A DNA stretch of 64,000 nt from an uncultured Verrucomicrobiae bacterium. Lineage in GTDB: Bacteria > Verrucomicrobiota > Verrucomicrobiia > Chthoniobacterales > JAFAMB01. The notes under the pieces are model-generated. The model saw only the letters and a program-made list of their open reading frames with translations. It made no database searches and was not told the origin of the DNA. The stretch's first letter is position 1. Every line of letters begins with the position of its first letter. The DNA lies in the NCBI GenBank assembly GCA_963762565.1, contig CAVXLD010000003.1, forward strand, positions 512,001-576,000, in the 5' to 3' direction. A program made the translations under genes and the position numbers. Below are positions 9,700 through 49,845 of the stretch, in pieces.

Positions 9700-9794
9700 A
9701 TGTGAGCTTACGTTACCCAATTTCATCGGCAACCGGATACCGAAGCTCGGAAACGAACCGCAGCCCCGAAATTCTCCGGGGTGAAATGGACGCA

Positions 9795-9923
9795 GAACCT
9801 GTCGCGCCGTAGGCCTTTGCGGAGGCGGAACCTGTCGCGCCGTAGGCCTTTGCGGAGGCGGAACCTGTCGCGCCGTAGGCTGCGGAGGCGGAACCTGTCG
9901 CGCCGTAGGCCTTTGCGGAGGCG
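9795..9923. repeat. Tandem array of four 30-33 bp hairpin units
   Basis: gaacctgtcgcgccgtaggcctttgcggaggcg at 9795, 9828, 9861 (30 bp) and 9891, with no spacers. Confidence 0.95.
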
Positions 9924-10009
9924 GATTTACGCAGATGATGAGGTCCGGACGACCAATACGGTATAGCGAAACACGCTGCGGATCGTGGAACACTCTGAAA
10001 ACGGGAAAG

Positions 10010-10143
10010 ATCCGCAGATTACACAGATTACGCAGATTTCGTTTTGAGCTTTGATACGGCCGGCCATACAAATAAATCTTTCGTACCGACAAGTTCTCTC
10101 TTGCGCTGTCGCGCGACTCAGATTGAAAGCGAAATCTGCGGTT
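10010..10143. repeat. REPIN-like element family B (ccgcagatt...aatctgcgg arms around a ~95 bp core); other copies at 14950-15129, 21755-21893, 37136-37280
   Basis: Inverted 9-mer repeat arms (cgcagatta)n and (aatctgcg)n. Confidence 0.75.
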
Positions 10144-10179
10144 CGTTTTCTGTTTTCGCGGCTATGGTTGTCTTCGGCG

Positions 10180-11064
10180 ATGAAACCGAAACTGGCTGCT
10201 TTTCCCAAGTGCTTCATACAAGAACTCTGTGTTCGACACACGATGACGCTGGTCGATTGGATCGAAATGGCGTCCACTCTTGCGGTCGATGGGCTTGAAT
10301 TTTATTCCGGGTTCTTGAACGACGATCAGGCGTTTCTCGGCCAGGTGAAAGATCGCCTGCAAAAGCATGGGTTAGAAATGCCGATGCTGTGTTGTTCACC
10401 GGATTTTACGCAGCCGGATCCCGAACTGTTGAATGTAGAAATCGAACGGGAAAAGCGGATGATCGAGCTGACTGCATTTCTTGGAGGAAAGTTTTGTCGC
10501 GTACTTTCAGGCCAACGCTATCCAGGTCTGTCGCGTGAAGCCGGCGTATCTCAGGTAGTAAAAATTATCAAGTCACTGTTACCTTTTGCAGAGAAGCAGG
10601 GGGTCGTCCTAACCCTGGAGAACCACTATAAAGATAGCTTTTGGCGGTACCCCGAGTTCGCCCAAAAGATGGATGTTTTCCTGGAGATTGTGGAACAGAT
10701 CGATTCGCCTTGGTTCGGAGTGAATTTCGATCCTTCCAACACGATGTTAGCCGGTGAAGATCCAATCCAACTCCTTACAAGGATTAAACATCGGGTGGTA
10801 TCGATGCATGCCAGCGACCGTTATCTCACCAGCGGCACGCTCGAAGATTTACGTAAAGAAGAGAACGAGATCGGCTACGCCAACCGCCTGGCGCATGGCG
10901 TCATCGGGAAGGGACTTAATGACTATGACACTATCTTCACAATATTGCGTGAAGTTGGATTTAACTCATGGATCTCTATCGAAGACGGGATGCACGGGAT
11001 GGACGAACTGAGTGAGTCAGTGCGCTTCTTGAGGTCAAAAATAGATCAATATTTCGGCGCCTAA
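10180..11064 (+). CDS. Sugar phosphate isomerase/epimerase (AP endonuclease 2 TIM barrel)
   Basis: LENHYKD, VNFDPSN, MHASD and ISIED metal-binding motifs. Confidence 0.85.
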   Translation: MKPKLAAFPKCFIQELCVRHTMTLVDWIEMASTLAVDGLEFYSGFLNDDQAFLGQVKDRLQKHGLEMPMLCCSPDFTQPDPELLNVEIEREKRMIELTAFLGGKFCRVLSGQRYPGLSREAGVSQVVKIIKSLLPFAEKQGVVLTLENHYKDSFWRYPEFAQKMDVFLEIVEQIDSPWFGVNFDPSNTMLAGEDPIQLLTRIKHRVVSMHASDRYLTSGTLEDLRKEENEIGYANRLAHGVIGKGLNDYDTIFTILREVGFNSWISIEDGMHGMDELSESVRFLRSKIDQYFGA

Positions 11065-11378
11065 GGAAAGGTTAGCTTTGTCCCGGAGTGACTGGATGAT
11101 AGTAGCCCGACTCCGCAAGGCCTACGTCGCGATCGCTGGGGTTGGTCGTGCAAAATCAAAAGCTTCGGGTGCGCCGTAGTCTGCGAAGGCGACCTGGCAG
11201 TTTACTGCCTGGAATAGGTAAGAAAAATGAGTCCGTCTCGTAGAGATGGTTTGATCTCATTGGTTCTGGTGCGGCTTCATTTGGCATATCAAGATCCGGC
11301 AGGCTGAATCACACCGTCCCTACGGGACGAAGACATCCGGGCCCTTAGGTTGACGCGCGTGGGCAGCCACCGGACCGG

Positions 11379-11828
11379 TCAGTCGAGGATAGCGCCGGTG
11401 AGGTACTGTTCGAGGTTATCGATCGTCTCTGCCTGGGCCGAAATGAGGCACTTAACCAGATCACCGATCGAGAGAACTCCGACCATCTTAGCTCCTTTTA
11501 TGACCGGCAGATGTCGCACCCGCTCTTCGGTCATAACTCGCATGCAATCGACCACCGAGTCGGTCGGATCTGCGGTTACGAGATCCTGAGTCATTATCTC
11601 CTCCACGCGAGTCTCCTGTGAGGATTTTCCCTTGAGGATGACTTTCCGGGTATAATCGCGCTCGGAGATGATTCCAATCAGCCTGTTGTTTTCTAACACC
11701 GGGAGGGCTCCGATGTTTTTGTCCGCCATCAAGGCGATGGCGTCGAATACCATCGCGGTTGGTGCTATCGACCACACGGTCGAGCCCTTTCGCGCCAGAA
11801 TCCCGCTGATCGTGCCAGCGATTTTCAT
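11379..11828 (-). CDS. CBS domain-containing protein
   Basis: IGALPV, GIISERDY, RVRHLPV, LSIGDLVK. Confidence 0.95.
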   Translation of the reverse strand: MKIAGTISGILARKGSTVWSIAPTAMVFDAIALMADKNIGALPVLENNRLIGIISERDYTRKVILKGKSSQETRVEEIMTQDLVTADPTDSVVDCMRVMTEERVRHLPVIKGAKMVGVLSIGDLVKCLISAQAETIDNLEQYLTGAILD

Positions 11829-11908
11829 GTGTTACCTTCGGCCCGGCGGAGGAAGGATTCAAAAACAATCTGGGGGCTGAAAGAAAAATCGATCCCGCGG
11901 CGCTAACT

Positions 11909-12415
11909 CTAATGTAAGCCGCTTAGCTGTCGCTTTACTTTGTGGCCGGTTACAATGTCGGTGGGGTCTGCCTTGGTACCTTGGACGGTTACTTCTATCC
12001 AATCAGGAGGGGAGATCGTGAAATCGCGCTTAATAATCGGTCCGGTAAAATTATCTAACTGCAGGAATTTGTTGGTTGTGCGGTTGTAAAAGTAGGTTTG
12101 CCAATTCCATGGGGAATGGCCGCCGGAACTGGCCGTGCTGCACACGAAGAACTGGGAATCTGGTGTCCAGGCCGTCTTCTGAAGATTCCGGCCGTTGGAT
12201 TGGGTACTCGACCGGAAATTGTCGGTAGCAAGAACGCGATTACTTACATCGTGAATTTCGACGACAGATTCATTCAGGGGGGAAGGATTCCCGAACGACG
12301 AGATACAGGCCATCAGCTTTTGGTCCGGTGATGTTACTCCATCACAATTCCACTGAGATTGATGAGCGCAGCCCGCCGATAAAGTTATCAAGAGCAGGGG
12401 TAGAAAGGGGCGCAT
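11909..12415 (-). CDS. Hypothetical lipoprotein (beta-rich, PD40/WD-like)
   Basis: MRPFLPLLLITLSAGC lipobox; SPDQK and WTPDSQFF motifs. Confidence 0.65.
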   Translation of the reverse strand: MRPFLPLLLITLSAGCAHQSQWNCDGVTSPDQKLMACISSFGNPSPLNESVVEIHDVSNRVLATDNFRSSTQSNGRNLQKTAWTPDSQFFVCSTASSGGHSPWNWQTYFYNRTTNKFLQLDNFTGPIIKRDFTISPPDWIEVTVQGTKADPTDIVTGHKVKRQLSGLH

Positions 12416-12512
12416 ACAAACTGCCAACAACCTGCCACGGGTTGATAGGAACGCCAATACTAAATAGGGTGGAATACCTTGATTGTGAGTCACTTATAGG
12501 CAATGCTACGCT

Positions 12513-12886
12513 CTATGTTGCCAACCGCTCGGAGTCGGCCTCGCAAGCGAGGCGCGCTCCACAACCAGGCGTTGGCGAAGTCGGAAGGGCTTGGATCAAA
12601 TGGCGAGATGCCGAGGCTCTGATGCGAGCTTATGCCGGCGGGGCGGTAGGGGGGAGCGCATTAAATGAGGATCTGCCTTCGGCGCTCCTCGATCTAATAA
12701 AGGAGCAAAAAGAGTATCTCCAGAGCCTCCTTGAAGGCAGTTAGCAAGGAGCTCGGAGCTAGAATCTAGGAGCTAGGAGGCGGTGTCGCGGCTCCATCGT
12801 AATCGTCGTCCTTCCGCCTTCGCCAACGTCCCGGTTGTGGAGCGCGCCTCGCTTGCGAGGCCGACTTCCAGCGGTTGGCTACATAG
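12513..12886. repeat. About 76-bp inverted repeats (12513-12588 and 12810-12886) containing the REP ggagcgcgcctcgcttgcgaggcc; REP also near 16360, 19489, 19655, 22756, 23083, 26890
   Basis: Arms are reverse complements with few mismatches. Confidence 0.85.
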
Positions 12887-12951
12887 ACCCTGGGCTACGG
12901 CGAACAGGCTGTCCTCATTGGGGCGTGGCACGTCGATTCGATAGGCGGTTC

Positions 12952-13237
12952 CCAGCGCCTGGAGGGGAGCCGCTTTGGCGCGAAGCAGACGGCCTCGCAA
13001 TAGTTGTTTCAGCGCTCAATCCGGCTGAGAAATGTCGCAACAGGCGGCTCCCGGGAATAACCCAGGGCAATGTTTTATCTGTGGCTCGGGATCGTTTACA
13101 CCTGGCCACAAAGCTGCGAAGCGCTGGATTATTCCCGGGAGCCGCCTGTTTTTGCACGTTTCGGCCGGATTAGTGTTGGGACGAATTCGCGAGGGTGGAA
13201 AGGTAATGCGCCAAAGCGGCTCCCCTCCAGGCGCTGG
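12952..13237. repeat. About 285-bp four-REP BIME-like element; other copies at 22800-23065, 43883-44159, 52064-52363
   Basis: ggaggggagccgctttgg ... gcggctcccgggaa ... ttcccgggagccgc ... ccaaagcggctcccctcc in conserved order and spacing. Confidence 0.9.
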
Positions 13238-13519
13238 ACAGCTTGCCGACCGGAAGGAGTTAGCACTGATGTGTAACAGCCTAATCGGAATAAATCCGTT
13301 TGGCCCTCGGCCCGCATAGTGACGATCTTTATCGCCAATCCAGGGAGGGCTTCGGCTAATTTGTCCCGTAGTTCGTTAACTCTGGAATCGATGTCCCAGC
13401 TCGAGACTCCTTTCGTTTGCCCTACGCGGATTTTCGTCACCCGGAGTACATTGGACTTTTCGTCGGATTCCACCCTGATTATGCTTGGAGGGGAAAGGAA
13501 ACGTAGGGGGCGAGAGTAA

Positions 13520-13749
13520 CTGCGGCGGTCAATCGAAATCTCCGAGCGATCGACACATCGGCAGCTATGGCGAGAGCGCGGCCGCTGGCTTCTATGAATC
13601 GTTTCGACCACAGAAGCCGCCTCTTCAGCGCGTTCGCGATAGTTCACGGCGACCCCGGCACCCAAGTTAGCGAGCGCTAAAGCAATCGCCTTGCCGATGC
13701 CGCGCGAGCCGCCGGTGACCAACGCAATCCGGTTATTTAATCCTGACAT
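13520..13749 (-). pseudogene. Truncated short-chain dehydrogenase (FabG-like N-terminus)
   Basis: MSGLNNRIALVTGGSRGIGKAIA...VAVNYR, then a frameshift; no YxxxK region. Confidence 0.8.
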
Positions 13750-13889
13750 TTCGAAGAAACTTTCACAGCAAGATCGCAAAGGCCACAAAGACTTCTTTAA
13801 ACAGGAGGCTTTGACGACAACCGCGAATGGACCCGCGTTCGCAAGGCCGACGGCGTGGCAGGCCGCGAATTAACAACCAATACAAACCC

Positions 13890-14004
13890 AACCGCAGATT
13901 AAGCAGATGTACGCAGATTATAGTCAGGGGCGTAGCCGGAGCCCAGAGTCAAAATCTGCGTAAATCTGCGTCCATTTCACCCCGGAGAATTTCGGGGCTG
14001 CGGT
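13890..14004. repeat. REPIN-like element family A; other copies at 49090-49206 and 49688-49804 (inverted)
   Basis: accgcagatt..gcagatgtacgcagatta[g/t]agtca..ggcgt...aaaatctgcgtaaatctgcgtccat...ctgcggtt shared by all three. Confidence 0.9.
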
Positions 14005-14069
14005 TTCTTTTCCCTTTGTCGCGTTCCATACGCAGTTCTCGTCGGCTGGGGAGCGCCTTCCTTAGCGCT

Positions 14070-14501
14070 TCATTGCGCCTCGTCTGGAAGGGTTGCTTCC
14101 GGATCTCCCGGCCGATGGAACGCCTGAAAGTTTGCCACATCCAGCGTATAGATGCGGTCAGCTTTGGCTTTGCGTGCTGCCGCGAGGTGCAGATAGTCGT
14201 AAATCGCGGCACCGCGTACTCCGTGCAAGGGAGCCTCTTTAAGGCTGGCGATCAGTTCTCTGGCGGACAGCGTAACTACTTCAACATTAGGGAGCACGCT
14301 TTGCTCAAGGAGCTGGATCGCGATTTCTGGCGACACTCGAAAACCTAATCGACCGCCGGTTAAAACACTGTAGACTTCGCCTAGGGCATGCGCATAGACA
14401 TGCTTCCGAGGCGGATCAAGCAACTGTCCACAGGCATCATGGTGCAGCTCAGCCTCAACCAGAGCGGCGATCAAAACCGATGAATCTAACGCCGCACTCA
14501 T
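14070..14501 (-). CDS. vapC: PIN-domain toxin (VapC family)
   Basis: LDSSVLIAAL, E in ALGEVY, IYDYLHLAAA, YTLD; ATGA overlap with the antitoxin stop. Confidence 0.85.
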   Translation of the reverse strand: MSAALDSSVLIAALVEAELHHDACGQLLDPPRKHVYAHALGEVYSVLTGGRLGFRVSPEIAIQLLEQSVLPNVEVVTLSARELIASLKEAPLHGVRGAAIYDYLHLAAARKAKADRIYTLDVANFQAFHRPGDPEATLPDEAQ

Positions 14502-14779
14502 CTTGATCGACGCACCCGTCGAATAACCTGTTGGTCTTGATCCTCGCGGTCTGCTTGGATGGCTTCGGCTGCATTTAGGCCTTTGGGCGGACCAACGATG
14601 ACCAGGCGGTCGCCCCGCCGAGTCACCTTTACCTGGTCGTCCGCCTGGGGCGATAGTTCGATTTTGCTGGCCGAAACCTTTAACATCAACTTCGCGCCCC
14701 CTCGCAAGTGGAGGAGTTCCCGGACCGTCTTTGGCAAGACGATACGTCCGGCTGAGTCCATAGTTATGGTAACGTCCAT
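14498..14779 (-). CDS. AbrB/MazE/SpoVT-family antitoxin
   Basis: ITMDSAGRIVLPKTVRELLHL motif; upstream of and coupled to the PIN gene. Confidence 0.9.
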   Translation of the reverse strand: MDVTITMDSAGRIVLPKTVRELLHLRGGAKLMLKVSASKIELSPQADDQVKVTRRGDRLVIVGPPKGLNAAEAIQADREDQDQQVIRRVRRSR

Positions 14780-15436
14780 ACCATAAATTGTGCCATGGAT
14801 TATGGTTTACGGCAATCCGACCAGCCAGACGGCAAGACAAGACACATTTGAACGGGAGACTTCGACAGCTGGATGACTGCCCGACGGCCATCCGCGTCAC
14901 TAGTCCGCCCAGACCAGATCTCAGAATTCTGGCGGGACGAACATGAAGACAGGTTGATTATCCGCAGATTAACGCAGCCCCGAAATTCTCCGGGGTAAAA
15001 TTACGCAGATTACGGTTTGGGCTCGGGCTCGGCTTTGTCAGATAAATAGATCTTTGTGGCTGGATCAGGTTTTAGTAACCCTGGGCAACGTCCGAACCGA
15101 AAACCGAAATCTGCGTAATCTGCGGATATTAAAAACCCGATCCAACGCTTAATCCGGAGCTGCAACACTTGCCCGACCGCCATCCGCGTCTCTCTGCGGT
15201 TAGGCTTTCATTTGCGCTCTTTTGTTTCGATCGGTGGGTACCGCGGAAGCCTTCTGTTTAAAGTCTGTCTTTGTGGCCTTTGTGATCTTCCTGTGAAATT
15301 TCAGATCCGGTTCGACGAGAGGGCGGAACTAGCTTGACGCCGGGGCATTTTCCCGATGGAATCTTGGATAGCTTTAACTTCCAAACGGGTCCTCGGTTTG
15401 GCGGTTGTTTTGCTTCCAAAAAAGGGAACCCCCTCC

Positions 15437-16297
15437 ATGAAGATAAGTATTAGTTTCAATAAGAGGCTGCTTATTCGCGCCCTCTGTCTACTCTCAATTA
15501 CTGGTGCCGCGGTTTTGGCCATGCCAACACGGGCCGGCGCCCAGCTCTATGTCAGTCAAGTGCAAGCAGGGATTGTGAGCGAATACAATGCGAGCACCGG
15601 AGCACTCATCAAGGCCGACTTCATAACCGGGCTGAACACCCCTAACGCTCTCTTGCTGTCCGGCAGCGATCTTCTGGTTGCGAACGAAGCCGGATCAGTC
15701 GGTAAATACAACGCATCAACAGGGGCGGCCATTAATCAGAGCTTTATCACGGGCACGAACTTCCAGCCGATCGGCCTTGCCTTGTCGGGTACAGACCTGT
15801 TCGTGGCGAACATCTCCAACGCCACGGTCGGCAAATACAATGCCAGCACGGGCGCGGCGATTAAGGTGCCTTTCATCAAGAAGCTGCCAGCCGCCAGCAG
15901 TATCGGACTCGGAGTGTTCAACACCATTCTTTTCGTGGCGGAAGAGGGCCAGAGCAAGCTTGACAAATACGCCATCTCCACCGGAGCGGCAAAGGCAGCG
16001 CTGACGCTGAAGAAGCCGAATCCGTATGGGGTTGCGGTCTTGAACGACGACCTTTTTGTGACCAGCTTGAGCGCCGGCACAATTAGTGAATACAACGTCA
16101 AGACGGGAGCGGCGATTAAAGCTAGCTTCATTACCGGGCTGAATTTTCCGACCCAAATCGCTATACTAAACGATACCCTCTACGTGGTTAACTATGGCGG
16201 CGGTACGGTTGGTGAATACAATGCCAAAACGGGAGCAGTGATTAACGCCAGCCTCATCTCGGGACTAACCGCACCTTGGGGAATCGCCGTTCAGTAG
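15437..16297 (+). CDS. Secreted beta-propeller repeat protein (NHL/YncE-like)
   Basis: Signal peptide followed by about 6 repeats of LFV...G.V..YNA.TGA.I...FITGL..P.GIA. Confidence 0.8.
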   Translation: MKISISFNKRLLIRALCLLSITGAAVLAMPTRAGAQLYVSQVQAGIVSEYNASTGALIKADFITGLNTPNALLLSGSDLLVANEAGSVGKYNASTGAAINQSFITGTNFQPIGLALSGTDLFVANISNATVGKYNASTGAAIKVPFIKKLPAASSIGLGVFNTILFVAEEGQSKLDKYAISTGAAKAALTLKKPNPYGVAVLNDDLFVTSLSAGTISEYNVKTGAAIKASFITGLNFPTQIAILNDTLYVVNYGGGTVGEYNAKTGAVINASLISGLTAPWGIAVQ

Positions 16298-16464
16298 CCC
16301 CCTGACACCCTGGCGTGAGAGGTGAGAGGTGATCGGGGGAGGCGCGAAGCGCTGGCCCGTGGAGCGTTGCCTCGCTTGCGAGGCCGTGTGAGCAGCGCCG
16401 GACCGCACATCAGGTCCTTATTTTTTTGCGCTCTATGTTATAGCTCAAAAGCTTTGTCTTCGTT

Positions 16465-16878
16465 CTACGGCCCGCCGTCGTTAACTATGCGTTCAACCTG
16501 CGGTACAACGGACGGGTCACCGAACTTCTTTTGTAGGGCGTCAGCCAGATCTTTGACGAAAGTCTTTCCTTCTGCCGATCGCGACGAAGTGTCAATGCTT
16601 ATGTCATAAAAATACTTGCGTGCCTCGGGAGTTGGAAACGAAACGAGCGCGACGACGTTCCCCCGCCTTACGTTTATGCGCCGCCAATTGCCGCCTTGCG
16701 GTAAGCCTTTGGGAGGCAGACTATCAACGGAAACTCCGTTCAACCTACTGACCACGGCAATGACTTCACCCCGTCCAAGGGGTTCCAGGCGGAGCACATT
16801 TACGCCACTCCTCCAGCCGAGCATACATCCTGACAGGAATCCACACAGGAGAAGTAGCGGAACCATTTTTTTGATCAT
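16465..16878 (-). CDS. Hypothetical lipoprotein
   Basis: MIKKMVPLLLLCGFLSGC lipobox. Confidence 0.6.
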   Translation of the reverse strand: MIKKMVPLLLLCGFLSGCMLGWRSGVNVLRLEPLGRGEVIAVVSRLNGVSVDSLPPKGLPQGGNWRRINVRRGNVVALVSFPTPEARKYFYDISIDTSSRSAEGKTFVKDLADALQKKFGDPSVVPQVERIVNDGGP

Positions 16879-16886
16879 ACCTACAA

Positions 16887-17285
16887 CTACAACTCGCTCA
16901 TGGGAGTTCTCAGATACACCACGATATCGACCAGACGATTGCTCTCGTCGAAGCCGTACTCCGCTTTTACGCTGTAAGTAGTCAGACCGAAAAGGACCCT
17001 GTAGGTAGACTCAAAACCGAGTCGTTTGACACCAATAGAGGTCACTTCACGTCCTCGGTTCGCCAGATAACGGTACCGATAGACGGGTTGGGTCTGAACG
17101 AGTGGCAATATCGATGGCTCGTGCTCTCGAGCTTCCTTTTCCGCAAATTGTAAGACGGTCCTGAATGGAGTGCCGGCCGGGGTGATTGCCAAAAGCTGTT
17201 GCCTAACGGATTCACTGCTGCTCAGGAATCCTACGCGAAGCGTGTCAGCTCGCTCTTTGCGGCATCCGACAATTAAAGCAAACAA
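16887..17285 (-). CDS. Hypothetical protein (possible lipoprotein; start uncertain)
   Basis: FALIVGC; C-terminal YGFDESNRLVDIVV; 8 nt upstream of the next gene. Confidence 0.45.
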   Translation of the reverse strand: MFALIVGCRKERADTLRVGFLSSSESVRQQLLAITPAGTPFRTVLQFAEKEAREHEPSILPLVQTQPVYRYRYLANRGREVTSIGVKRLGFESTYRVLFGLTTYSVKAEYGFDESNRLVDIVVYLRTPMSEL

Positions 17286-17728
17286 GAGGGCGGAGCTTAC
17301 AACGCTGAGAAACGGATTCGTCGGTAGCCAAATGGCTCTGCGGATTTACGGCGCACGTCGCCACTCTATTTTACCGGCTTCGGCTTCGGAAATCAGAAAA
17401 ATAGGGCGTTTCTATTGACAAAAATGATAGTGCGTCTAACGCGGCGGAGCGGTGGGGTATTTAAGTCTGGCAGCTGCCATAGGCGTCAAGTTAACAGGCG
17501 GTGTGCACGCACCACCCCTTGCGGAGGGGAGCCGCATTAAAATCGTTCCGTCCTTGGACCGAGAAAAAGGAATTATGGCGAGGTGGGCCGAAACGCGTGG
17601 ACTGCTGCGGCTCCCTGTGCGCGCGGAACAACCTAGAGACGTTTTCAACCCCAGATTGTAACTACAGCGCAGTTCGGGGAGAGGGTCGAACGACGCGCTG
17701 ATGGCGCGTCGTTCGAGGATTGGTAAGA

Positions 17729-19391: not shown

Positions 19392-19437
19392 ATTCTTAGT
19401 TCGTTGGGGGTATCTGAGCGTAGCGTTTTTTAAGAAA

Positions 19438-37064: not shown

Positions 37065-37296
37065 CCGCCAACCGCGAATGGATACGAATTGACGCGAAGA
37101 GCAAAGACGAACCGCAGATTTCGAAGACTCAAGGCAGGTTGATTATCCGCAGATTACGCAGATTTCGTTTTCAGGTTCCTATGTTGCCCAGGGTTACAGA
37201 AGACGTGACCGAGCCACAAAGATGTTTTTATCTGAAAAGCCGCGCCAAGTCCGAACCGTAATCTGCGTAATCTGCGGATGAATCCCTTCTTAATGC

Positions 37297-38432: not shown

Positions 38433-38463
38433 ATAAAGTTACGAGCAGACAAATTTCTAGAGA

Positions 38464-40989: not shown

Positions 40990-41039
40990 TCTTGGAAGGA
41001 GTTAGTTCAAAGGAGTTTAGGAGTTCAGATTGGTTTGAA

Positions 41040-41894
41040 TCAGCCGGGGACGAGATCGGGTCTGCGCCAAGTGAGAAATCCTTTGATCATGAGGGTGAAA
41101 AGGGCGAGCAATGTGAGCAGCGACGCAACGGCGAAAGCGCCAACGTAATCGTAGTCGTTGTACAAGACCTCGACGTGAAGAGGGATGGTATTGGTGAGCC
41201 CCCGGATATGTCCGGACACCACGGAAACCGCCCCGAACTCGCCCATGGCGCGTGCGTTACACAAGATCACGCCATAGAGAATGCCCCAGCGCGCCTTGGG
41301 CAAAGTGATCCGCCAAAAGGTTTGCCACCCGTTGGCGCCTAAGGAGAGCGCGGCTTGTTCTTCGTCGCTACCTTGGGATGTTAGCAGCGGTATCAGCTCA
41401 CGAGCGACAAACGGAAAAGTGACAAAGATGGTAGCGAGCACGATCCCCGGAACAGCAAAAATGATTTTAATGTTCCAGGCGCTAAGCAGGGGTCCGAACC
41501 AGCCGCGAGCGCCGAATAGCAGAACAAACACCAGACCGGATGTGACCGGTGAAATTGAGAACGGCAGATCGATGAGAGAAATGAGAACCGTCTTACCGGG
41601 GAAGTTAAACTTAGCAACGGCCCAAGAGGCGGCGACGCCAAAAATCAGGTTGGCGGGGACTGCAATTGCAGCGACCAGCAGGGTAAGCTGAATGGCAGAC
41701 AACGATGCTGGCTTCGCGAAAGCCGCCAGGTAGCCGGTAATGCCCTTTTGGAAAGCTTCAAAGAACACGGCCAAGAGCGGGACTAGCAGGAATAAGATCG
41801 CGAAAGCGACCGCCGCGACCAGAAGGACTGCTTTCACTATCCAGGGATCGCGGACAGCAGGATGGCTAATGGGAATCGGACTGGTGTTTTCCAT
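41040..41894 (-). CDS. cysW: Sulfate ABC permease CysW
   Basis: DLPFSISP, PFVARELIP, NARAMGEFGAVSVVSGHIRG. Confidence 0.95.
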   Translation of the reverse strand: MENTSPIPISHPAVRDPWIVKAVLLVAAVAFAILFLLVPLLAVFFEAFQKGITGYLAAFAKPASLSAIQLTLLVAAIAVPANLIFGVAASWAVAKFNFPGKTVLISLIDLPFSISPVTSGLVFVLLFGARGWFGPLLSAWNIKIIFAVPGIVLATIFVTFPFVARELIPLLTSQGSDEEQAALSLGANGWQTFWRITLPKARWGILYGVILCNARAMGEFGAVSVVSGHIRGLTNTIPLHVEVLYNDYDYVGAFAVASLLTLLALFTLMIKGFLTWRRPDLVPG

Positions 41895-41897
41895 CGT

Positions 41898-42752
41898 TTA
41901 AGCAAACTCGCCCCGGAGTTTTCCCCAGCGCTGCAACCCATTGATGAGGAAAAGTAAGATTAGCGAAACAACGAGCATCATCACCGCGATGACCGTGGCT
42001 TCGGTATAATGGAACTGATCAAGCTCCATCATGATCAGCAGCGGTACGATCTCGGTTTTCATCGGCATATTACCGGAGATGAAAACGACCGACCCGTATT
42101 CCCCAAGCGCCCGGGCAAATGCCACGGTGAAGCCGGTGAGAGCGGCCGGGATCAGCTCAGGAATGACGATCCGAACAATAGTCTGGAGGCGTGATGCTCC
42201 TAAGCTAGCCGCTGCTTCTTCAAACTCGATATTGAGATCCGCCAATACGGGTTGAACCGTTCGGACCACAAAGGGGAAGCCAATAAAAACGAGCGCTAGA
42301 AAAATGCCCATCGGAGTAAAGGTCAATTTCCAACCGGTGAGCATCTGAACGGGGCCACCAATCCAGCCGTTCGCTGAATAAATGGCGGTCAGAGCGATAC
42401 CGGCAACCGCTGTGGGCAATGCGAACGGAAAGTCCACAATGGCATCTAAGAATCGACGGCCGGGAAACCGATAACGGACCAATACCCAGGCCAGGATTGT
42501 ACCCAAGAATATGTTGACCAATGCAGCGTAGAACGAGACCGAAAAGCTGAGTTGAAAAGCGGCCAGAACCCGCGGGTTCAAGATGGTGGCGATGAATCCG
42601 TCAAACCCGATCCCGGACGCCTTGATGAAAAGCGCCGCTAGCGGGATCAGGACAATCAGACTCAGGTAAACAAGCGTAAACCCCAGGCTCAAACCGAACC
42701 CGGGAAGGACTTGGCGCCGCCACCAGAGACTGAAGGGAACAGAATTGGTCAT
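41898..42752 (-). CDS. cysT: Sulfate ABC permease CysT
   Basis: [32 protein letters not shown]. Confidence 0.95.
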
Positions 42753-43756
42753 TTAGGTTGGTAGATCTGATCGAAGATGCCGCCGTCAGCGAAGAACTTG
42801 GGTTGCGCAGACTTCCATCCGCCAAAGAACTTATCGATCGTAAACATCTCGATATTTGGGAATTGTTTGCTGTACTTCGCGTAGATCTGGGGATCGATCG
42901 GCCGATAGAAATTCTTGGCAATGATCTCTTGGCCAACTGGAGTGTAGAGATATTGCAGGTAGGCCGTGGCAGCGTCGCGGGTTCCTTTTTTGTCCACCAC
43001 CTTATCCACTACCGCTACCGGAGGTTCAGCCAGGACACTGACCGACGGATTGACAATCACGAATTTGTCTGCCCCAAATTCTTTGAAGCTAAGATAGGCT
43101 TCGTTCTCCCAAGCAATGAGAACATCTCCCAGCTCCCGTTGCACAAAGGTAGTGGTTGATCCGCGCGCACCGGAATCTAGCACCGGAACATTCTTATAGA
43201 GGGCGGTAACAAACTCTTTGGCTTTGGCTTCGTCATTCTGATTGGCTTTCAGCGCGTAACCCCAGGCCGCGATGAAATTCCATCTGCCTCCGCTAGAGGT
43301 TTTCGGGTTTGGCGTGATGACCTGGATGCCCGGTTTAATCAGGTCCGGCCAATCCTTTATCCCTTTTGGGTTCCCCTTTCTGACCAGGAGCACGATGGTG
43401 GAAGTGTAGGGGCAGCTATTCTGCGGAAATTTCGCCTGCCAGTCAGAGGCGACGAGGTTTCCATTGTCGTGAAGGGCATCGATATCTGCGGCAAGACCCA
43501 AGGTCACGATATCGGCTTCAAGTCCGTCGATCACTGATCGAGCCTGTTTGCCCGAACCTCCGTGAGACTGGTCTATCACAACCTGTTTACCGGTCTTACT
43601 CAGGTAATCCTGGGCGAAGGCCTGGTTAAATTCTTCGTAGAGTTCGCGAGTTGGATCGTAGGAAACGTTGAGGAGATGGATGGCGTCTGCCGACACATGG
43701 GTTACAAGCGTGCCGACAAGAGAGAGAATGGCGAGACATCGGAGGAGCGATCGCAT
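42749..43756 (-). CDS. sbp: Sulfate-binding periplasmic protein
   Basis: [42 protein letters not shown]. Confidence 0.95.
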
Positions 43757-43760
43757 AAAG

Positions 43761-43815
43761 AACCCGACCAAATGCATCGGGATTAGAGAAAAGCATACTC
43801 TTTTGATCGGGTAAA
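43761..43815. promoter_or_regulatory. Two candidate Rrf2 (CymR/IscR-like) binding sites upstream of sbp
   Basis: aacccgaccaaatgcatcgggatt (43761-43784) and aagcatactcttttgatcgggtaaa (43791-43815); an Rrf2 gene lies upstream. Confidence 0.5.
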
Positions 43816-44611
43816 GCCGAAATGGTCGGGCCTTTTAGGTTTTAGCGGTCGATGCTGCCGCGCGGTGTGTGATCACACAGCACCTGGAGGGGAGCCGCTT
43901 TGTCATGTATCAGGCGACCCTCGCGATTTCGTCTCAGCGCTCCATTCGGAGAAAGGATATTGCAGCGGGCGGCTCCCGAGAATAGCCCAGGGCGAATGTG
44001 TGAACCCCGGGGTTTGGGACCGTTTACGCGCGGCTACAGAGCAGCGAATCGCTGGGTCGTTCGTGGGAGCCGCCTGTTCTCACATGTCTTACCTGGACGA
44101 ATGATGAGGCGAAGTGTGCGAGGGTGACAAGATGTGCGCCAAAGCGGCTCCCCTCCAGGCTCCGGGCGTGTGACTCAACACACGGCTTTGCCGACGCACC
44201 GGAAGGGACTCAAAAAACAAAAGGATCGAATCGTATTTTTTGCCGGGCTAGGCTTCATTGAGCGCGGATGAACAAACACTGAGTACGCTCCTGGAGAAGC
44301 CGGAGACTGCGCCGGCAATTCAGGCGCAAGTCGTCGCGCTGCGAGGCCGTGCCCCAGCCTAAAGGTTTATTTTCATCTGCGATCACAAATAGGTCCGCGG
44401 CTTCACTAACAGCGGATCGCGAGCACGCGATCCCTCTCGGGTTTGGGTTCGCGCTGTATCGGAGGTGATGGTTTCTGATGTCGGTCCGGGCGAGGTAGCA
44501 AATCAGGGGGCGCGGCTCGGCGGCGTAGAGGCCGAACGCAATCATGGGCGTCAAATGGGCGCGGAGCGTTGCGACCGTTTCGAGGTTACATTGGAGCCTC
44601 GCCCTACCAGG

Positions 44612-45127
44612 CTACGATTCCAGCACCTCGAGCTCGGCGCCTTCTTCGGGGCGAAGCGCTTTGGCGGCAAATGGCAACGGGACTTTATCTCGCCGCATTT
44701 TGCGAAGCGTAACCTCGACGATTTGAGCCAGGGTAAACCGATCCAAAATGTTGGCGATGGCATTGCGAACGTCAGACATGAGCATCCGTAACCCACAATG
44801 CTCTTCGTCCGGACAAGTACAACGCTCGTAGGCCATTTGGCTCACGCAGGCGATCGGCGCGAGCGGTCCGTCGATTAATCGGACCACATGACCGATGACA
44901 ATCTCTTCCGGAGGTTTGGCGAGGAGGTAACCGCCATGTTTGCCACGGCGACTATCCAAATAGCCTGCTCCTTTGAGCTGCATCAGGATTTGCTCCAAAA
45001 ACTTGACGGGCAATTCTTCCTTAGAAGCGAGTTCATTCACTTGGAGAAGCGGCTTACCGAGTGCTTGTGCCAGCCCAAAATCAATCAGCGCCCGGAGGGC
45101 GTACTCGCCCCGCTTAGAAAGTTTCAC
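44612..45127 (-). CDS. Rrf2 family transcriptional regulator
   Basis: LSKRGEYALRAL, FLEQIL, SRRGKHGGY.LA, three Cys (CVS..C.C...C). Confidence 0.95.
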   Translation of the reverse strand: MKLSKRGEYALRALIDFGLAQALGKPLLQVNELASKEELPVKFLEQILMQLKGAGYLDSRRGKHGGYLLAKPPEEIVIGHVVRLIDGPLAPIACVSQMAYERCTCPDEEHCGLRMLMSDVRNAIANILDRFTLAQIVEVTLRKMRRDKVPLPFAAKALRPEEGAELEVLES

Positions 45128-45237
45128 GATTGGCTATATTACCTTGCCACAGAGGGAAAAACAACACCTGGCAGGCGAAAGTTGCAGTGGGAGCTCTTTA
45201 TTGTTGCAAGTAAGTTGCAACGGGAGAATGTTTCGCG

Positions 45238-46131
45238 ATGGGCCGTGCCTTCGCCTCTTTTTGCGTCTGTTTTCTCGTCTTTTCAACCCCTAAACTGCAG
45301 GCCGAAATCAAGGTCGCTTCTTTCTCCACTGTTCTCACGGAAATTGCACAGAAAGTGGGCGGGAAGGATGTGACGGTCGCCGGTCTGATCAAACCCGGGC
45401 AGGATCCACACGAGTACCAATTAACGCCCGGAGACCTGAACGCGGCGTCGACAGCCGATCTCGTTCTCTTGAGCGGAAAAGGGATGGAAGCGAGCTATTT
45501 GCAGAATCTGAGTGACGCTTTGCCGAAGCATGTGCAAGTGCTGACGGTTGGTGACAAACTTCCTAGTTTAACCAGGCCGACTGACGAAGAGAAAGAGGCC
45601 CAAAAAGAAACGACGCAAGATCCCCACTGGTGGAATAGCGTCTCGGAAACGGAAAAAGCGACGGTGATTGTGCGGGATGCGTTGATACATCTAGACGGGC
45701 AGCACACTGCCGATTATCTAGCCGGAGCGCAGGCTTATCTGACCGCGCTCAAGGAGCTCGATTCATGGGTCAGACGGAAGGTGGCGGAGCTTCCGCGCAA
45801 TCAGCGTAAATTGGTGACTTCGCACGACGCGTTCCAATACTTTGCGAAAGATTACGGGTTTCAGATCGACTCAATCGAGGGCATGACAACCGATCAGGAA
45901 CCGTCTGTCAGCCATGTGACCGGGTTGATCGCGGAGATCAAGAAGCAGGGGGTAAAAGCGATCTTTTTGGAGAACACGCTTAACCCGAAGGTGAGTGTGG
46001 AGATTACTCGCGAAAGCGGGGCGAAAATTGGCGGTAGCCTTTATGCCGATGGATTGGGGCTGGGGGACGGCGCGACGTACGCCAGCATGTTCCGGCATAA
46101 CGTCAACACGATCGTCGACGCTCTGAAATGA
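45238..46131 (+). CDS. Zn/Mn ABC transporter substrate-binding protein
   Basis: DPHEY, DPHWW, TSHDAFQYF, LYADGL. Confidence 0.93.
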   Translation: MGRAFASFCVCFLVFSTPKLQAEIKVASFSTVLTEIAQKVGGKDVTVAGLIKPGQDPHEYQLTPGDLNAASTADLVLLSGKGMEASYLQNLSDALPKHVQVLTVGDKLPSLTRPTDEEKEAQKETTQDPHWWNSVSETEKATVIVRDALIHLDGQHTADYLAGAQAYLTALKELDSWVRRKVAELPRNQRKLVTSHDAFQYFAKDYGFQIDSIEGMTTDQEPSVSHVTGLIAEIKKQGVKAIFLENTLNPKVSVEITRESGAKIGGSLYADGLGLGDGATYASMFRHNVNTIVDALK

Positions 46132-46547
46132 GGGGATCGCCACTGGCCCAGGCGGTTTTGGTAGTAGCTGTCCTTTTGCTATTGTTGATTCCGCTGCATC
46201 GTCTCACAAAAAGAGAACAAAGGCCTCCCGAGCGTCCGGTCGTTTCATCGCCTGAGAAACAGGTGCATCTGGCCATGAGGACCACCGCGGTGCCATGCCG
46301 ATTTAAAATTACATTTTTGGGGAAGACATTGTGGGCGGAAGAAGCCACGACTCCCGAGCTGGCAAAGGATTTCGATATTGATTTTCCCAAGGAAGGAATT
46401 GACCTGGTGGTGGATGCAGCCTGGCAGACTCAAGCTTTAGCGGCGATCGAGATCACGTTGTCGTTACCGGACGGGACTGCGATACATAAGACGCTATGGG
46501 GCCAAGGAACGGCGAGCGACGTCGTCACGTTCAGAGAAGATGAATAG
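46128..46547 (+). CDS. Hypothetical membrane-anchored protein in the metal ABC operon
   Basis: ATGA overlap with the binding-protein gene; N-terminal TM. Confidence 0.75.
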   Translation: MRGSPLAQAVLVVAVLLLLLIPLHRLTKREQRPPERPVVSSPEKQVHLAMRTTAVPCRFKITFLGKTLWAEEATTPELAKDFDIDFPKEGIDLVVDAAWQTQALAAIEITLSLPDGTAIHKTLWGQGTASDVVTFREDE

Positions 46548-46604
46548 CCGCGAAAACTTGTCGCGCCGTAGCTGGCGAAGGCGGAAGGCGCAAAAAGCAA
46601 AAAA

Positions 46605-47345
46605 GTGAAACCTGAGCACGTTTTGGCAATCAAAGATCTGACGGTCAGTTATCGCCGAGTTCCGGCGGTGCATCATGTCGATCTAAGGCTGCATTGCGGA
46701 CGGTGTGTCGGGTTGTTGGGGCCGAACGGAGCCGGTAAGACATCGTTTCTGAAAGCGCTGGCGGGTTTGGTACCCATGGAGACCGGCACCATCGAGTTTG
46801 GCGGCCACAATCACAAGCAAGGGCCAGGAAGTTACACAGCCTACCTGCCGCAAAGATCCGCGGTCGATTGGGATTTCCCTACCACGGTTAGAGGCCTGGT
46901 GGAAATGGGCCGCTACTCAGCTTTAGGCTGGTGGAGGCCGTTTCGAGGAATCGACCGGGAAAAAGTTGATAAGGCCCTTGAAGCAATGGAGCTGGTCGAT
47001 CTGGCCGAAAGACAAATCAGTGCGTTGTCCGGGGGCCAACAACAACGAGCTTTTCTTGCTCGCTCCTTGGCCCAAGATGCGCACGTTTTCTTGCTGGACG
47101 AGCCATTTACCGGGCTGGACCGGCCCTCGCAAGATCTGTTTGGCCAGATCTTGAAAAGGCTGGCTGGGCAAGGGAATCTCTTAATTGTCTCGCATCACGA
47201 TCTAAGGATGGTGCCCACGCTGTTTGACGAGGTTATCTTGTTGAACGGAGAGCTCGTGGCATACGGTCCGACCGAGCAAGCGTTCAGTGAAGACACCATC
47301 GGGCGAACGTTCGGAACGCACACTTTTTCCGGAGCAAGCACCTGA
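46605..47345 (+). CDS. Zn/Mn ABC transporter ATP-binding protein
   Basis: GPNGAGKT, YLPQ...DWDFP, LSGGQQQR, DEPFTG, SHHDL. Confidence 0.93.
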   Translation: MKPEHVLAIKDLTVSYRRVPAVHHVDLRLHCGRCVGLLGPNGAGKTSFLKALAGLVPMETGTIEFGGHNHKQGPGSYTAYLPQRSAVDWDFPTTVRGLVEMGRYSALGWWRPFRGIDREKVDKALEAMELVDLAERQISALSGGQQQRAFLARSLAQDAHVFLLDEPFTGLDRPSQDLFGQILKRLAGQGNLLIVSHHDLRMVPTLFDEVILLNGELVAYGPTEQAFSEDTIGRTFGTHTFSGAST

Positions 47346-48235
47346 TGTCGAACGGCTGGCTGCACCTCTTCTACGCGCAGGATATGTTGCGTCCGCTCTT
47401 TGCGGCGGTTCTGATCGGGTTCACTAACGGCGTTTTAAGTGTTTTCGTCGTTCTGCGCCGGCTTTCGTTGATGGCGGACGCGATATCTCATTCGCTATTA
47501 CCGGGTTTGGCGATCGCCATTCTTCTTTTTGGGCTGGCGCCGGCTACGCTGGTGGCAGGCGCTTTTCTGGCGGCGCTTTTGGTTGCGCTAGGCACCCAGA
47601 TTATCGCCAATAGCACCCGGATAAAAGAAGATACCGCTCTGGGCTTGTTGTTCGCTTGTGCGTTCTCGTTAGGGCAAGCATTGTTAAGGCTAGCTCCGGC
47701 ACAGATCGGGATTACAGAATACCTTTTCGGCAATATCCTGGGACTTAGCGATGGCGACCTGTACTTAACCTATGGGATCACGTTCTTTGTGCTTCCGCTG
47801 TTGGTGCTGCTCCAGCGGCCATTCCTTCTGATGTTGTTCGAGCCGTCAATCGCTTCGACCCAAGGAGTCCCGGTCAGAACCCTGAAATATCTCTTAATGG
47901 TTGTGCTGGTGCTGGCAATGATTTCTTCGTTGCGCGCGGTGGGAATCATCCTTGCCTTGGGAACATTGATCGGGCCGGCCGCAACCGTTTATCTCTTTGT
48001 GGATTCCTTTTCGGTCATGTTCTGGCTAAGCGGTTTGCTTGGCGCCTTCGCATCGCTACTAGGGCTATTGGTCTCTGATTGGACCGATCTACCAGCCGGA
48101 GCATGTATCGTGTTGGTGCTGGGAATCTTATTTCTGGCAAGCTACCTCTTAAGCCCCCGTTACGGGCTGCTCCGCCGTTTGCGTAAGGGGCATTTCCACG
48201 CGCAATCGCTGGCGAGATGGGGAGGTGAGAAGTGA
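47345..48235 (+). CDS. Zn/Mn ABC transporter permease
   Basis: LRRLSLMADAISHSLLPG, IKED, YLFGNILG. Confidence 0.93.
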   Translation: MSNGWLHLFYAQDMLRPLFAAVLIGFTNGVLSVFVVLRRLSLMADAISHSLLPGLAIAILLFGLAPATLVAGAFLAALLVALGTQIIANSTRIKEDTALGLLFACAFSLGQALLRLAPAQIGITEYLFGNILGLSDGDLYLTYGITFFVLPLLVLLQRPFLLMLFEPSIASTQGVPVRTLKYLLMVVLVLAMISSLRAVGIILALGTLIGPAATVYLFVDSFSVMFWLSGLLGAFASLLGLLVSDWTDLPAGACIVLVLGILFLASYLLSPRYGLLRRLRKGHFHAQSLARWGGEK

Positions 48236-48383
48236 GATGTGAGAGGTGAGAAGTGATTGGTGGCGGAGGGTGATGGCCCGCAAAACGGACATCATTCTCG
48301 TCTGTCACGGATCACACTGTTCCCACTGTGATTCGGCACGGCCGCTGACTACCTCTCACTTCTCACCTCTCACTTCTCACTTC

Positions 48384-49010
48384 TCACACGAGGGTTTCTC
48401 GCGCGGCACGAAACAGGAGGTTAACCGAAGTCGATCCCGGATCCTGGTGGCCGATGCTTCGTTCGCCGAGATAGCTGGCGCGGCCTTTTTTGGCAAGCAA
48501 CGGGACGGTGCTTTCCATTCCTTTTTCGGCGGCGTTAGACGCTGCTAACAGGGCATCCGCAAATGGTTTACCGGATTTCAGTGTGGCTTGATAGGCTTCA
48601 ACCGCCGGCTGGAGAGCGTCTACCATCGTCTTATCGCCGAGGGCAGCTTTACCGCGCTGGAGGATCCCGGCTAGCGCTTTCTCGAGGAGGAGGCCGAATT
48701 CTTCTGCGGAGATTTCAGACTTGCCTCCGGCCGCCATGGAGGCCTGTAGAAAAAAGGTGCCATAGAGCGGCCCGCTGGCTCCGCCGACTGTGGATAAAAG
48801 AGTCATCGCTACGGTCTTGAGGACTGTGGTGATATCTTTACCCTCGAGCTCGGACTTTTTTGCCAACACGGCTTGAAACCCACGATCCATATTGGCTCCG
48901 TGGTCGGCATCTCCGATCGCGGCGTCGAGTTGGGTAAGATAATCTTTGTTTTCGGCTAGAAGCCCCGTAAACCGTTCCAACCAACGAATTACCTGTTCGG
49001 AAGTGACCAT
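48384..49010 (-). CDS. dhaL: Dihydroxyacetone kinase ADP-binding subunit L
   Basis: LDAAIGDADHG.NM, GGASGPLYG, GDKTMVD, GRASYLGERS.GHQDPG. Confidence 0.95.
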   Translation of the reverse strand: MVTSEQVIRWLERFTGLLAENKDYLTQLDAAIGDADHGANMDRGFQAVLAKKSELEGKDITTVLKTVAMTLLSTVGGASGPLYGTFFLQASMAAGGKSEISAEEFGLLLEKALAGILQRGKAALGDKTMVDALQPAVEAYQATLKSGKPFADALLAASNAAEKGMESTVPLLAKKGRASYLGERSIGHQDPGSTSVNLLFRAARETLV

Positions 49011-49340
49011 AGAAGCAGAAATTTGACCACAAACCCGCGAAGACACAAAGCCGAATCTAAACCGCGAATGGATGCGAAAACGGAAAGCGAACCGCAGCCC
49101 CGAAAGTCTCCGGGGTGAAATTAACGCAGATGTACGCAGATTAGAGTCAGTGGCGTGGACGAAACCCAGGCCAAAATCTGCGTAAATCTGCGTCCATCTG
49201 CGGTTAGATTTTTATTCTCGTCTATTCGTGGTTAGCCTTCATCTCTTTGTGCCTTTGCGGCGAACATTGATTGTGGGCAGGGATCGGGAAAATGGGTTGC
49301 TTTCGGATTTGGGGAGGGGTTTTATCGCAAGGGAGACGCT

Positions 49341-49619
49341 ATGATTTTCTTCGAGATCCTAGGCGCGATAGTGATTGGCTTTCTAGTCGGGGCATTAGCG
49401 AAACTGATTGTTCCGGGTCGGGAGCGTGGGGGCTGTTTGACCACTATATTAATCGGAATCGCTGGTTCGTTTGTCGCCTTTTTTATCGGCACGTATTTCT
49501 TTGAACACAAATTTACGAGCAGTAACCCACTTCAACCGGCAGGATTCATCTCCTCACTGCTCGGGGCGATTCTGATTCTCGCCATTTATCATTGGATCCG
49601 CCGGCGCCGACAGAAGTAG
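49341..49619 (+). CDS. GlsB/YeaQ/YmgE family stress-response membrane protein
   Basis: IVIGFLVGALAKLIVPG, ILIGIAGS, S.LGAILIL. Confidence 0.9.
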   Translation: MIFFEILGAIVIGFLVGALAKLIVPGRERGGCLTTILIGIAGSFVAFFIGTYFFEHKFTSSNPLQPAGFISSLLGAILILAIYHWIRRRRQK

Positions 49620-49845
49620 CCAAAATTTCACGCGAGAAACCCTAAGACTAACCGCGAATGGACACGAATGAACGCCAATAAAAGCGAAACCGCAGCCCCG
49701 AAATTCTCCGGGGTGAAATGGACGCAGATTTACGCAGATTTTGGATTCGGCTTCGACTACGCCATTGACTCTAATCTGCGTACATCTGCGTTAATCTGCG
49801 GTTCGGTTTTCCGTTTTCGCGTCCATTCGCGGTTTAGATTTTGTC

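Follow-up and report, generated by a model that had tools for sequence, protein, structure and literature searches.

A 22-nt hairpin element at a CAG-defined junction inside other repeats of a genus of soil Verrucomicrobiota

We describe here a 22-nt element, H, that was studied in a 64,000-nt stretch of DNA (the window) from an uncultured Verrucomicrobiae bacterium, corresponding to G000:C3:512001-576000, where G000 denotes the 6.1-Mb assembly (15 contigs, 93.7% complete) and C-numbers denote its contigs. H occupies a sequence-defined junction, in a single orientation, directly 3′ of CAG and with no target duplication; several unrelated hairpin-forming repeats host it, and matching sites differ precisely by its presence or absence. 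Its range is a single genus of soil Verrucomicrobiota, of which five further genomes, all from sister species, are called G001-G005 below; L-numbers denote fetched loci.

When both strands of the window were searched with the degenerate pattern CCCCGAAAKTCTCCGGGGTRAA at up to two mismatches, exactly five matches were found, each with 0 mismatches, as against a mean of 0.00 and a maximum of 0 in 100 dinucleotide-preserving shuffles. An earlier note on this DNA had placed five copies at CGCAG^AT within repeat arms, and both its coordinates and its strands proved exact: all five have CGCAG on one side and AT on the other, within runs of CGCAG-ending words. The stem of H has 5 bp (CCCCG/CGGGG) and closes a loop of 8 nt; a tail of 4 nt follows, TGAA or TAAA, and with its flanks H reads CAG, CCCCGAAATTCTCCGGGGTGAA, AT; we refer to CCCCGAAATTCTCCGGGGTGAA, the exact sequence of 30 of the 69 copies counted in G000 at up to two mismatches, as canonical H. 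The copies that we looked at, in the window and in the fetched loci, are all in gene spacers and non-coding. Those of the window are the following.

9764..9785, + strand: H copy 1 (CCCCGAAATTCTCCGGGGTGAA), between aaccgcag and atggacgcag
13976..13997, − strand: H copy 2, in the beta arm of the 13890-14005 palindrome; flanks, as reverse complement, aaccgcag^H^atggacgcag
14978..14999, + strand: H copy 3, of the TAAA-tail subtype typical of 9-nt-word hosts; attaacgcag^H^attacgcag
49098..49119, + strand: H copy 4 (variant CCCCGAAAGTCTCCGGGGTGAA), of the alpha-arm lineage; aaccgcag^H^attaacgcag
49696..49717, + strand: H copy 5 (canonical); aaccgcag^H^atggacgcag

The hosts include palindromes whose arms are runs of 10-nt or 9-nt words; we label the two kinds of arm of the former alpha (attaa.gcag atgtacgcag) and beta (atggacgcag atttacgcag).

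13890..14005 (C3:525890-526005): 116-bp 10-nt-word palindrome with alpha arm attaaGCAGatgtaCGCAG and beta arm atggaCGCAGatttaCGCAG; H in the beta arm
49090..49205: 116-bp 10-nt-word palindrome; H in the alpha arm; predicted single-stranded DNA fold of -34.6 kcal/mol, with H as a side branch
49688..49803: 116-bp 10-nt-word palindrome in the opposite orientation; H in the beta arm; predicted fold of -30.8 kcal/mol
14960..15127: 9-nt-word palindrome, atccgcag attaacgcag, H, attacgcag ... ctgcgtaatctgcggat; H after the first word
37145..37279: empty homologue of the element at 14960, with the left flank caggttgattatccgcagatta in common; no H and one word fewer

Arms and loop orientation agree between the palindromes at 13890-14005 and 49090-49205, but H is in opposite arms, and the element at 37145-37279 is empty where its homologue at 14960-15127 is filled, so the differences in occupancy that had been read from the window are real.

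At up to two mismatches the reversed control pattern found 0 copies in G000, compared with the 69 of H. At up to three mismatches there are 82 copies, 71 of them with CAG directly on the 5′ side, a trinucleotide with a background of 1.6% of G000 positions; in this count the class-3 copies introduced below were scored as having AGC as their 5′ flank, since they have one extra stem base relative to the 22-nt register. An independent scan of public metagenome contigs, made with a pattern that did not contain CAG, returned 118 stretches, and in the 80 loci fetched CAG stands 5′ of H in 77 of 88 copies. The bases on the 3′ side vary (AT, CG, CA, CC or AG), the orientation of H relative to CAG is constant, and there is no target duplication at any copy checked in the window, in G000 or among the metagenome loci. 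Genome and metagenome flanks support the earlier description of H as a very small non-coding element with a sequence-defined site and a fixed orientation, inserted without target duplication inside other repeats. The target itself has to be restated, since CGCAG^AT applies to the window copies and the rule for the genome as a whole is CAG^: H is also found in two types of repetitive extragenic palindrome (REP) that flank genes for Y1 transposases or REP-associated tyrosine transposases (RAYTs), as well as in other contexts. Sorted by flank, the 82 copies fall into these host classes.

10-nt-word arms (aaccgCAG^atggacgcag...): 48 copies
9-nt-word arms (atccgcag attac(a/g)CAG^attacgcag): 7 copies
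Class-2 REP (ctaggctaTAATctatCAG^cgcttcgcgcct; 3′ side begins cgcttcgcgcc): 15 copies
Class-3 REP (gggagccgcttt...ggCAG^caggcggctccc): 3 copies
Degraded contexts: 9 copies

Class-2 REPs, as inverted copies, flank an IS200-like Y1 gene at C9:102253 (NF033573, 59.6 bits with a cut-off of 55), and class-3 REPs flank a RAYT gene at C1:579877 (NF047646, 89.5 bits with a cut-off of 80). Three extra contexts come from the metagenome loci (gaacCAG^ccgttcgcg, gcaCAG^aggacgc and gatgCAG^agtggcg). The flanks support the conclusion that at least 6-10 unrelated junction contexts have the 5′ CAG in common, with the same register and orientation.

The filled/empty comparison in related genomes that the earlier note had proposed gave precise 22-nt pairs between strains, and such pairs also exist between paralogs of G000 itself. 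The metagenome locus L075 aligns with C8:47423-48027 of G000 over 629 columns with an identity, counting gaps, of 94.75%, and over the 211 nt around the site the two differ only by three substitutions and an exact 22-nt indel, which is H, between ...gcgtccat and ctgcggtt; no co-converted markers are visible in this pair. Within G000, the class-2 paralogs at C12:500360 (filled) and ~C12:505871 (empty) have the rare variants tttCAC and CGCTACGCGGCT in common and show an exact 22-nt difference over a host of ~85 nt. The 49 class-2 hosts comprise 12 filled and 37 empty ones, and those with a CAG junction (n=19; 8 filled, 11 empty) are more often filled than those without (4 filled, 26 empty), but the two groups are different subfamilies too, so that the comparison is no clean test of a CAG requirement.

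The 9-nt-word element C12:65986 of G000 has H in its left arm, but in the orthologue L044 it is the right arm that holds H, and the number of words differs between the arms. In L048/C4 and L107/C10, whose elements are partly rebuilt, it is the relative that has H and G000 that lacks it. At L067, L093 and L069 both genomes are filled at the same site, with H identical at 22/22 or 21/22 positions and flanks of ~77-98% identity, and about nine other syntenic metagenome/G000 spacers hold wholly different elements. The window's own two spacers are uninformative on gain or loss of H, because in the five sister species both hold other word palindromes, and four of these species have no CGCAG host there. 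The spacers orthologous to window positions 47300-51000 in G001-G005 (L009-L018) contain long palindromes in every species, built of differing words (caccacagagacacagag, gcagatagca, cgcgaat and cgcagat), which suggests that the position has been kept and the element replaced.

Within the word arms, H has a strong preference for one junction. Outermost AACCGCAG junctions are filled in 48 of 257 cases, written AACCGCAG-H-ATGGACGCAG, whereas only 5 of 664 inner ACGCAG junctions are filled (p = 6e-23). Between ...C(G/A)CAG and the AT-word that follows, the spacing peaks at three lengths only: 0 nt (485 cases), 22 nt (48, which are H) and 32 nt (18). Most complete CGCAG-word palindromes are empty (84 of 94, with nine singly filled and one doubly filled), and among these 94 there is no excess of double occupancy (1 seen, ~0.3 expected).

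The distribution of H is narrow. Among the sister genomes G004 has 47 copies, G003 15, G002 4, G005 1 and G001 0, which places H in four of the five other genomes of its genus; it was found in 0 of 35 genomes of other genera in the family and order. A scan for CAG followed by H in one genome per species (185,579 species) gave 23 stretches: four isolates with records titled Verrucomicrobiota MAG (metagenome-assembled genome) account for 21, and a single contig of an Actinomycetota-titled bin for the other two. Within G000, the region C12:480-526 kb (L023-L025) holds 17 copies in 46 kb, compared with a genome average of ~1 per 75-90 kb, and ten consecutive copies there lie on the minus strand in a setting of mixed gene orientation.

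The variants of H track their hosts. Copies in 10-nt-word hosts are mostly TT..TGAA (33 of 48), those in 9-nt-word hosts have the TAAA tail in 6 of 7 cases (a tail that class-2 and class-3 hosts also contain), and TG at H positions 9-10, present in 11 of the 15 class-2 copies, is absent from every other class. In complete palindromes canonical H is found in beta arms and other variants (AGTC, GATA, AGCC..TTAA) in alpha arms. The flanks are not random either: ATGGA is the first word in 14 of 24 filled arms as against 29 of 132 empty ones (p = 0.00075), and ATTTA the second word in 12 of 24 as against 31 of 132 (p = 0.012). Taken together, these patterns imply that much of the copy number was probably built up inside host families, by descent or by copying from a template; primary insertions were perhaps few, one per context (~6-10), and followed by such spread in each family. 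We rejected a candidate 31-nt module of word plus H in 9-nt-word hosts because the same word order is frequent in empty arms, the ATTACACAG word beside H being present in 25 of 56 empty two-word arms.

The same kind of junction is used by a second micro-element, M2, of 32-33 nt (AACCTGTCGCGCCGTAGGC(C)TTTGCGGAGGCGG; 121 G000 matches at up to three mismatches). M2 occupies CGCAG^AT about a dozen times; its other hosts number at least six, among them a ggcctcgc^aagcgaggc REP, which holds M2 in its loop and also has empty copies.

9796..9924, + strand: M2 (AACCTGTCGCGCCGTAGGCCTTTGCGGAGGCGG) tandem array of four units (33, 33, 30 and 33 nt), at the next CGCAG^AT junction of the same arm, right after H copy 1
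C11:64718 and C11:65486 (L019), C3:800103, C5:119892 and C13:130929: further M2 sites

The reading toward which we lean, at slightly less than an even chance, is that H is a gene-less, REP-like micro-element with a single hairpin, whose rare primary insertions are made by an enzyme and are followed by spread within host families. A trans-acting enzyme would nick single-stranded or extruded hairpin DNA at the foot of the hairpin (CAG^C) and four bases beyond it (GAA^AT); by analogy, the likeliest candidate would be one of the genome's HUH Y1 transposases of the IS200/RAYT type, inserting 3′ of a short target as IS200/IS605 elements do. G000 is rich in such genes, with 12 Y1_Tnp matches. Most of the ~70 copies would then be secondary: either H was amplified along with its host repeat, or one homologous arm served as the template for another, also within a single palindrome. 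Such spread would account for the tracking of hosts by H subtypes. In the predicted fold of the host, H branches off sideways from a long stem of -31 to -35 kcal/mol.

Several results weigh against this reading. H has one hairpin, unlike the two-ended IS200/IS605 design, and on its own its predicted DNA fold is weak (-4.4 kcal/mol, z = -1.4). The earlier suggestion that RAYT or TnpA-Y1 genes might be flanked by H fared badly: none of the 12 Y1_Tnp matches in G000 has H within 2.5 kb, although a gene may be missing from an assembly of this completeness, none of the 23 Y1 loci fetched from G001-G005 contains H, and no Y1 orthologue tracks H abundance across the six genomes. For the 59 copies in CGCAG-word hosts, 34 are co-oriented with positive local GC skew and 25 are not (p = 0.30); local skew on draft contigs is a weak proxy for replication strand, but the lack of orientation bias counts against a lagging-strand-dependent mechanism of the IS200/IS605 type, which would predict such a bias. 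Finally, the tracking of hosts by subtypes and the non-random flanks suit recombination as well as transposition.

Searches for the signatures of known elements or for a parent element were largely negative. The GTAG and CGTC tags of the REP super-families are absent from H on either strand, H is mostly a single unit rather than an inverted doublet, and it differs from miniature inverted-repeat transposable elements in that its stem is not terminal at the 3′ end, where the 4-nt tail follows, and in the lack of a target duplication. Rfam gave 0 matches in the window at gathering thresholds, and for four H or H-like loci at E <= 1 it gave only tRNA hits and one sub-threshold match to Plastid-ycf2 (21.8 bits with a gathering score of 65.7; E = 0.54), which lies on the opposite strand of a tRNA-Lys gene and not at H. 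A scan for separated left and right halves of H gave mostly noise and two 66-nt forms, with no gene-bearing parent element. These forms (C3:254647-254725, L027 341-416; and C12:537440-537510, L028) have H-like sequence at both ends, between CAG and AT, and hold a nested double hairpin (predicted fold -21.6 kcal/mol, z = -4.3); they may be H carrying a further insertion, or a parent form. Two pairs of H copies around a gene were also rejected as candidates: the pair at C5:372082/373219 encloses an ordinary methyltransferase-like gene, which from its translation we take to be RsmD-like, and the pair at C11:64682/65527 surrounds a GxxExxY gene, of a kind that many word types bracket without any H-specific link.

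The GxxExxY genes (TIGR04256) are in fact bracketed by word arrays of many kinds, and in two cases by 9-nt CGCAG-word arms, so that the partnership with H proposed in the earlier note has no specific basis; nor was its view of the CGCAG-word hosts as REPINs (paired REPs that form a hairpin) borne out, as no RAYT is linked to them and the 9-nt-word arms bracket GxxExxY genes. The gene at C11:64902 has 9-nt CGCAG-word arms on both sides, each with H and M2. At C1:643896-644435 a GxxExxY gene lies within 9-nt-word CGCAG arms, and the orthologous spacer in L091 is without the gene and has a 10-nt-word palindrome with H. As for the Y1 genes, three of the Y1/RAYT type (C9:102000-102900, C1:579600-580400 and C1:531700-533000) each have their own type of flanking REP: a Y1-like gene of 348 aa at C1:531701, for example, is followed by a tandem array of ggcctcgcaagcgaggc...ctccacgg REP units, the last of which carries M2. 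The Y1 genes at C7:408772, C3:712536, C3:55497 and C1:119032 are flanked by other hairpins (gtccctacgggac, ccaggca..tgcctgg and ccccagg..cctgggg). The class-2 REP (e.g. at C5:74303, C7:321218 and C3:509632) contains a promoter-like ...tttttcaacag...ctaggcTATAATctatCAG, and the H junction in it is ~6-7 nt past the TATAAT-like box; judging from the sequence, a transcript begun there would have H at its 5′ end or close to it.

The alternative that survives best, although we hold it to be unlikely, is that H has no dedicated mobility: it would have arisen once or a few times within repeats and been gained and lost only by homologous recombination or gene conversion among hundreds of nearly identical arms, together with amplification of the hosts that bear it, and CAG would reflect ancestry and not targeting. 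The tracking of host families by H subtypes, the difference between the alpha and beta lineages and the enrichment of particular first and second flanking words in filled arms all fit this explanation well. Nearly all H copies, moreover, are in repeated hosts that provide homology, and the opposite-arm orthologues at C12:65986 and L044 could easily be made by arm-to-arm conversion within a palindrome. What weighs against it are the at least 6-10 contexts without mutual homology beyond CAG, each of which would need a non-homologous event at the same trinucleotide. The left homology of the 10-nt-word arms is also only ~8 nt long (aaccgcag), with variable A-rich sequence before it, and the 22-nt indels are exact, without co-converted markers in the comparison of L075 with C8. 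The earlier note had inferred independent insertions and had set against them a single insertion followed by gene conversion. The first of these stands for the unrelated contexts and the precise 22-nt pairs but not for many individual copies, given the within-family spread that is apparent from subtypes, arm variants and flank words; that spread comes close to the second, which does not fit unrelated contexts sharing CAG.

Rather unlikely, too, in our estimation is that H is a true hyperparasite. As a 22-nt unit with a single hairpin it would be cut and pasted by an enzyme acting in trans, 3′ of CAG, into other selfish repeats, in their stems as well as their loops and with the REPs of resident RAYTs among them, and hairpin would be swapped for hairpin as in the tRNA-Lys-like copies described below; the junction machinery may be shared with M2 and perhaps with the 9-10-nt CGCAG words. 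If this were true, the word-built palindromes would have been assembled piecewise at CAG^ junctions and not by slippage.

An improbable alternative has a small structure-specific GIY-YIG nuclease nick the foot of the hairpin after CAG, with H copied in by repair, in a homing-like manner. The sole small GIY-YIG gene of G000 (83 aa, C1:180071-180283) lies in a cassette beside a tRNA-Lys(UUU) gene (C1:179950-180460, L026), with tRNA-Lys copies on either side, the upstream one degenerate and the downstream one partial. Both copies read ...GTAGAGCAG^ and continue with CCCCGAAAGCTTTCGGGG, or with a longer hairpin that has the same base; this hairpin stands in for the 15-nt anticodon stem-loop, exactly after GAGCAG^, and the tRNA sequence resumes afterwards, so that the anticodon arm has been swapped (the downstream copy is still scored as a tRNA by Rfam, at 33.8 bits). 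G004, the other H-rich genome, is the only one with a close orthologue (80% identity) and has the same GIY-YIG/tRNA-Lys architecture, in two tandem cassettes on its contig C2 (L148 970-1800), whereas G001, G002, G003 and G005 give hits of 38-57% identity. This co-occurrence is only a hint, as it extends over six draft genomes, four of the relatives being 78-89% complete, and G003, in which no close orthologue was found, has 15 H copies. The earlier suggestion of a GIY-YIG gene flanked by H comes down to this one small gene, and the adjoining hairpins are H-like rather than canonical and replace a hairpin rather than insert. The Pfam GIY-YIG domain is the protein's only family assignment, and its catalysis and specificity are putative.

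The least probable explanation is that H is a selected cis-element (a protein-binding hairpin, a stem for RNA processing or stabilization, or a brake on cruciform extrusion): its identity at 22/22 or 21/22 positions between the orthologous sites at L067 and L093, in flanks of ~77-85% identity, the single sequence common to 30 of 69 copies and the position of class-2 H a few bases downstream of a TATAAT-like box are compatible with selection, but the homogeneity of the copies is equally explained by recent spread or concerted evolution, the hairpin is weak and has no Rfam match, either arm can hold it, 84 of 94 complete palindromes and most junctions are without it, and the orthologous spacers of sister species usually carry other elements and no H.

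To return to the favored reading, of a REP-like micro-element inserted by an enzyme, H can be set beside several known systems. IS200/IS605 elements insert in one orientation 3′ of a short specific sequence, without target duplication, through ends that depend on hairpins, and their precise excision restores the empty site; they have a hairpin at each end (two subterminal hairpins) plus a gene. H resembles them in being inserted 3′ of a fixed short target, in one orientation and without duplication, and differs in its 22-nt length, its one hairpin, its lack of a gene and of a replication-strand bias (34 vs 25) and in that no cognate TnpA was found. The closest precedent seems to be the small dispersed repeats (SDR) that Elhai and colleagues are said to have described in cyanobacteria in 2008, as "very small mobile repeated elements". 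Their units are reportedly in the low 20s of nucleotides, partly hairpin-forming and nested in other repeats, and reportedly they sometimes replace stem-loops in structured RNA genes. On this account, H is like them in its nesting in repeats and in the H-like hairpin that replaces the anticodon arm of the tRNA-Lys-like copies, although it is in a different phylum and has a different sequence; we know of no enzyme for SDR and of no description of a CAG^ junction rule or of RAYT-REP hosts for them.

In the literature on REPs, mosaics of these repeats (bacterial interspersed mosaic elements) are moved by RAYTs (Di Nocera et al. 2013, PMC3733652; Bertels & Rainey 2011, PMC3116915), REP families are regularly inserted inside other palindromes, hundreds of unoccupied target copies are present in Thermomicrobium roseum, and GTAG and CGTC tags define two REP super-families (PMC3733652). 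H is like the REPs, which in those accounts are hairpin repeats of 20-40 bp, in being a short, non-coding, intergenic and imperfect palindrome of 69-82 copies, and two of its hosts are themselves REPs that flank Y1/RAYT genes; it differs in that it has no GTAG or CGTC tag, is beside no Y1 gene, is mostly single and follows a trinucleotide rule across unrelated hosts. In the account of Wu & Hao (2015, PMC4478555), the GC clusters of yeast mitochondrial DNA are hairpins some tens of bp long, which homologous positions may have or lack, and their stem is constrained; "merger and shuffling" is invoked there, recombination at conserved flanks aids their spread, and an RNA-mediated route is proposed for a mechanism left unresolved. 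They differ from H in being organellar, 42 bp long and associated with a putative AG target-site duplication (same source). In literature on nested REPINs and on GIY-YIG genes with tRNA and hairpin repeats, we found no description of H. It is a variant of the very small REP-like or SDR-like mobile repeats, an element that is new within a kind that is known.

If H moves as a 22-nt unit, it would put a lower bound on the size of units inserted site-specifically into bacterial DNA and would be among the smallest such units there, and selfish repeats would prove to be colonized by still smaller ones. The hairpin together with CAG would offer a compact substrate with which to find the nuclease or transposase (Y1/RAYT, GIY-YIG or other) that builds the layered and unusually dense intergenic palindromes of soil Verrucomicrobia. 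The swap of hairpin for hairpin in the tRNA-like copies hints at a route by which structured RNA genes may be remodeled, and micro-insertions of this kind are a source of strain-level indels that can confuse metagenome assembly and alignment.

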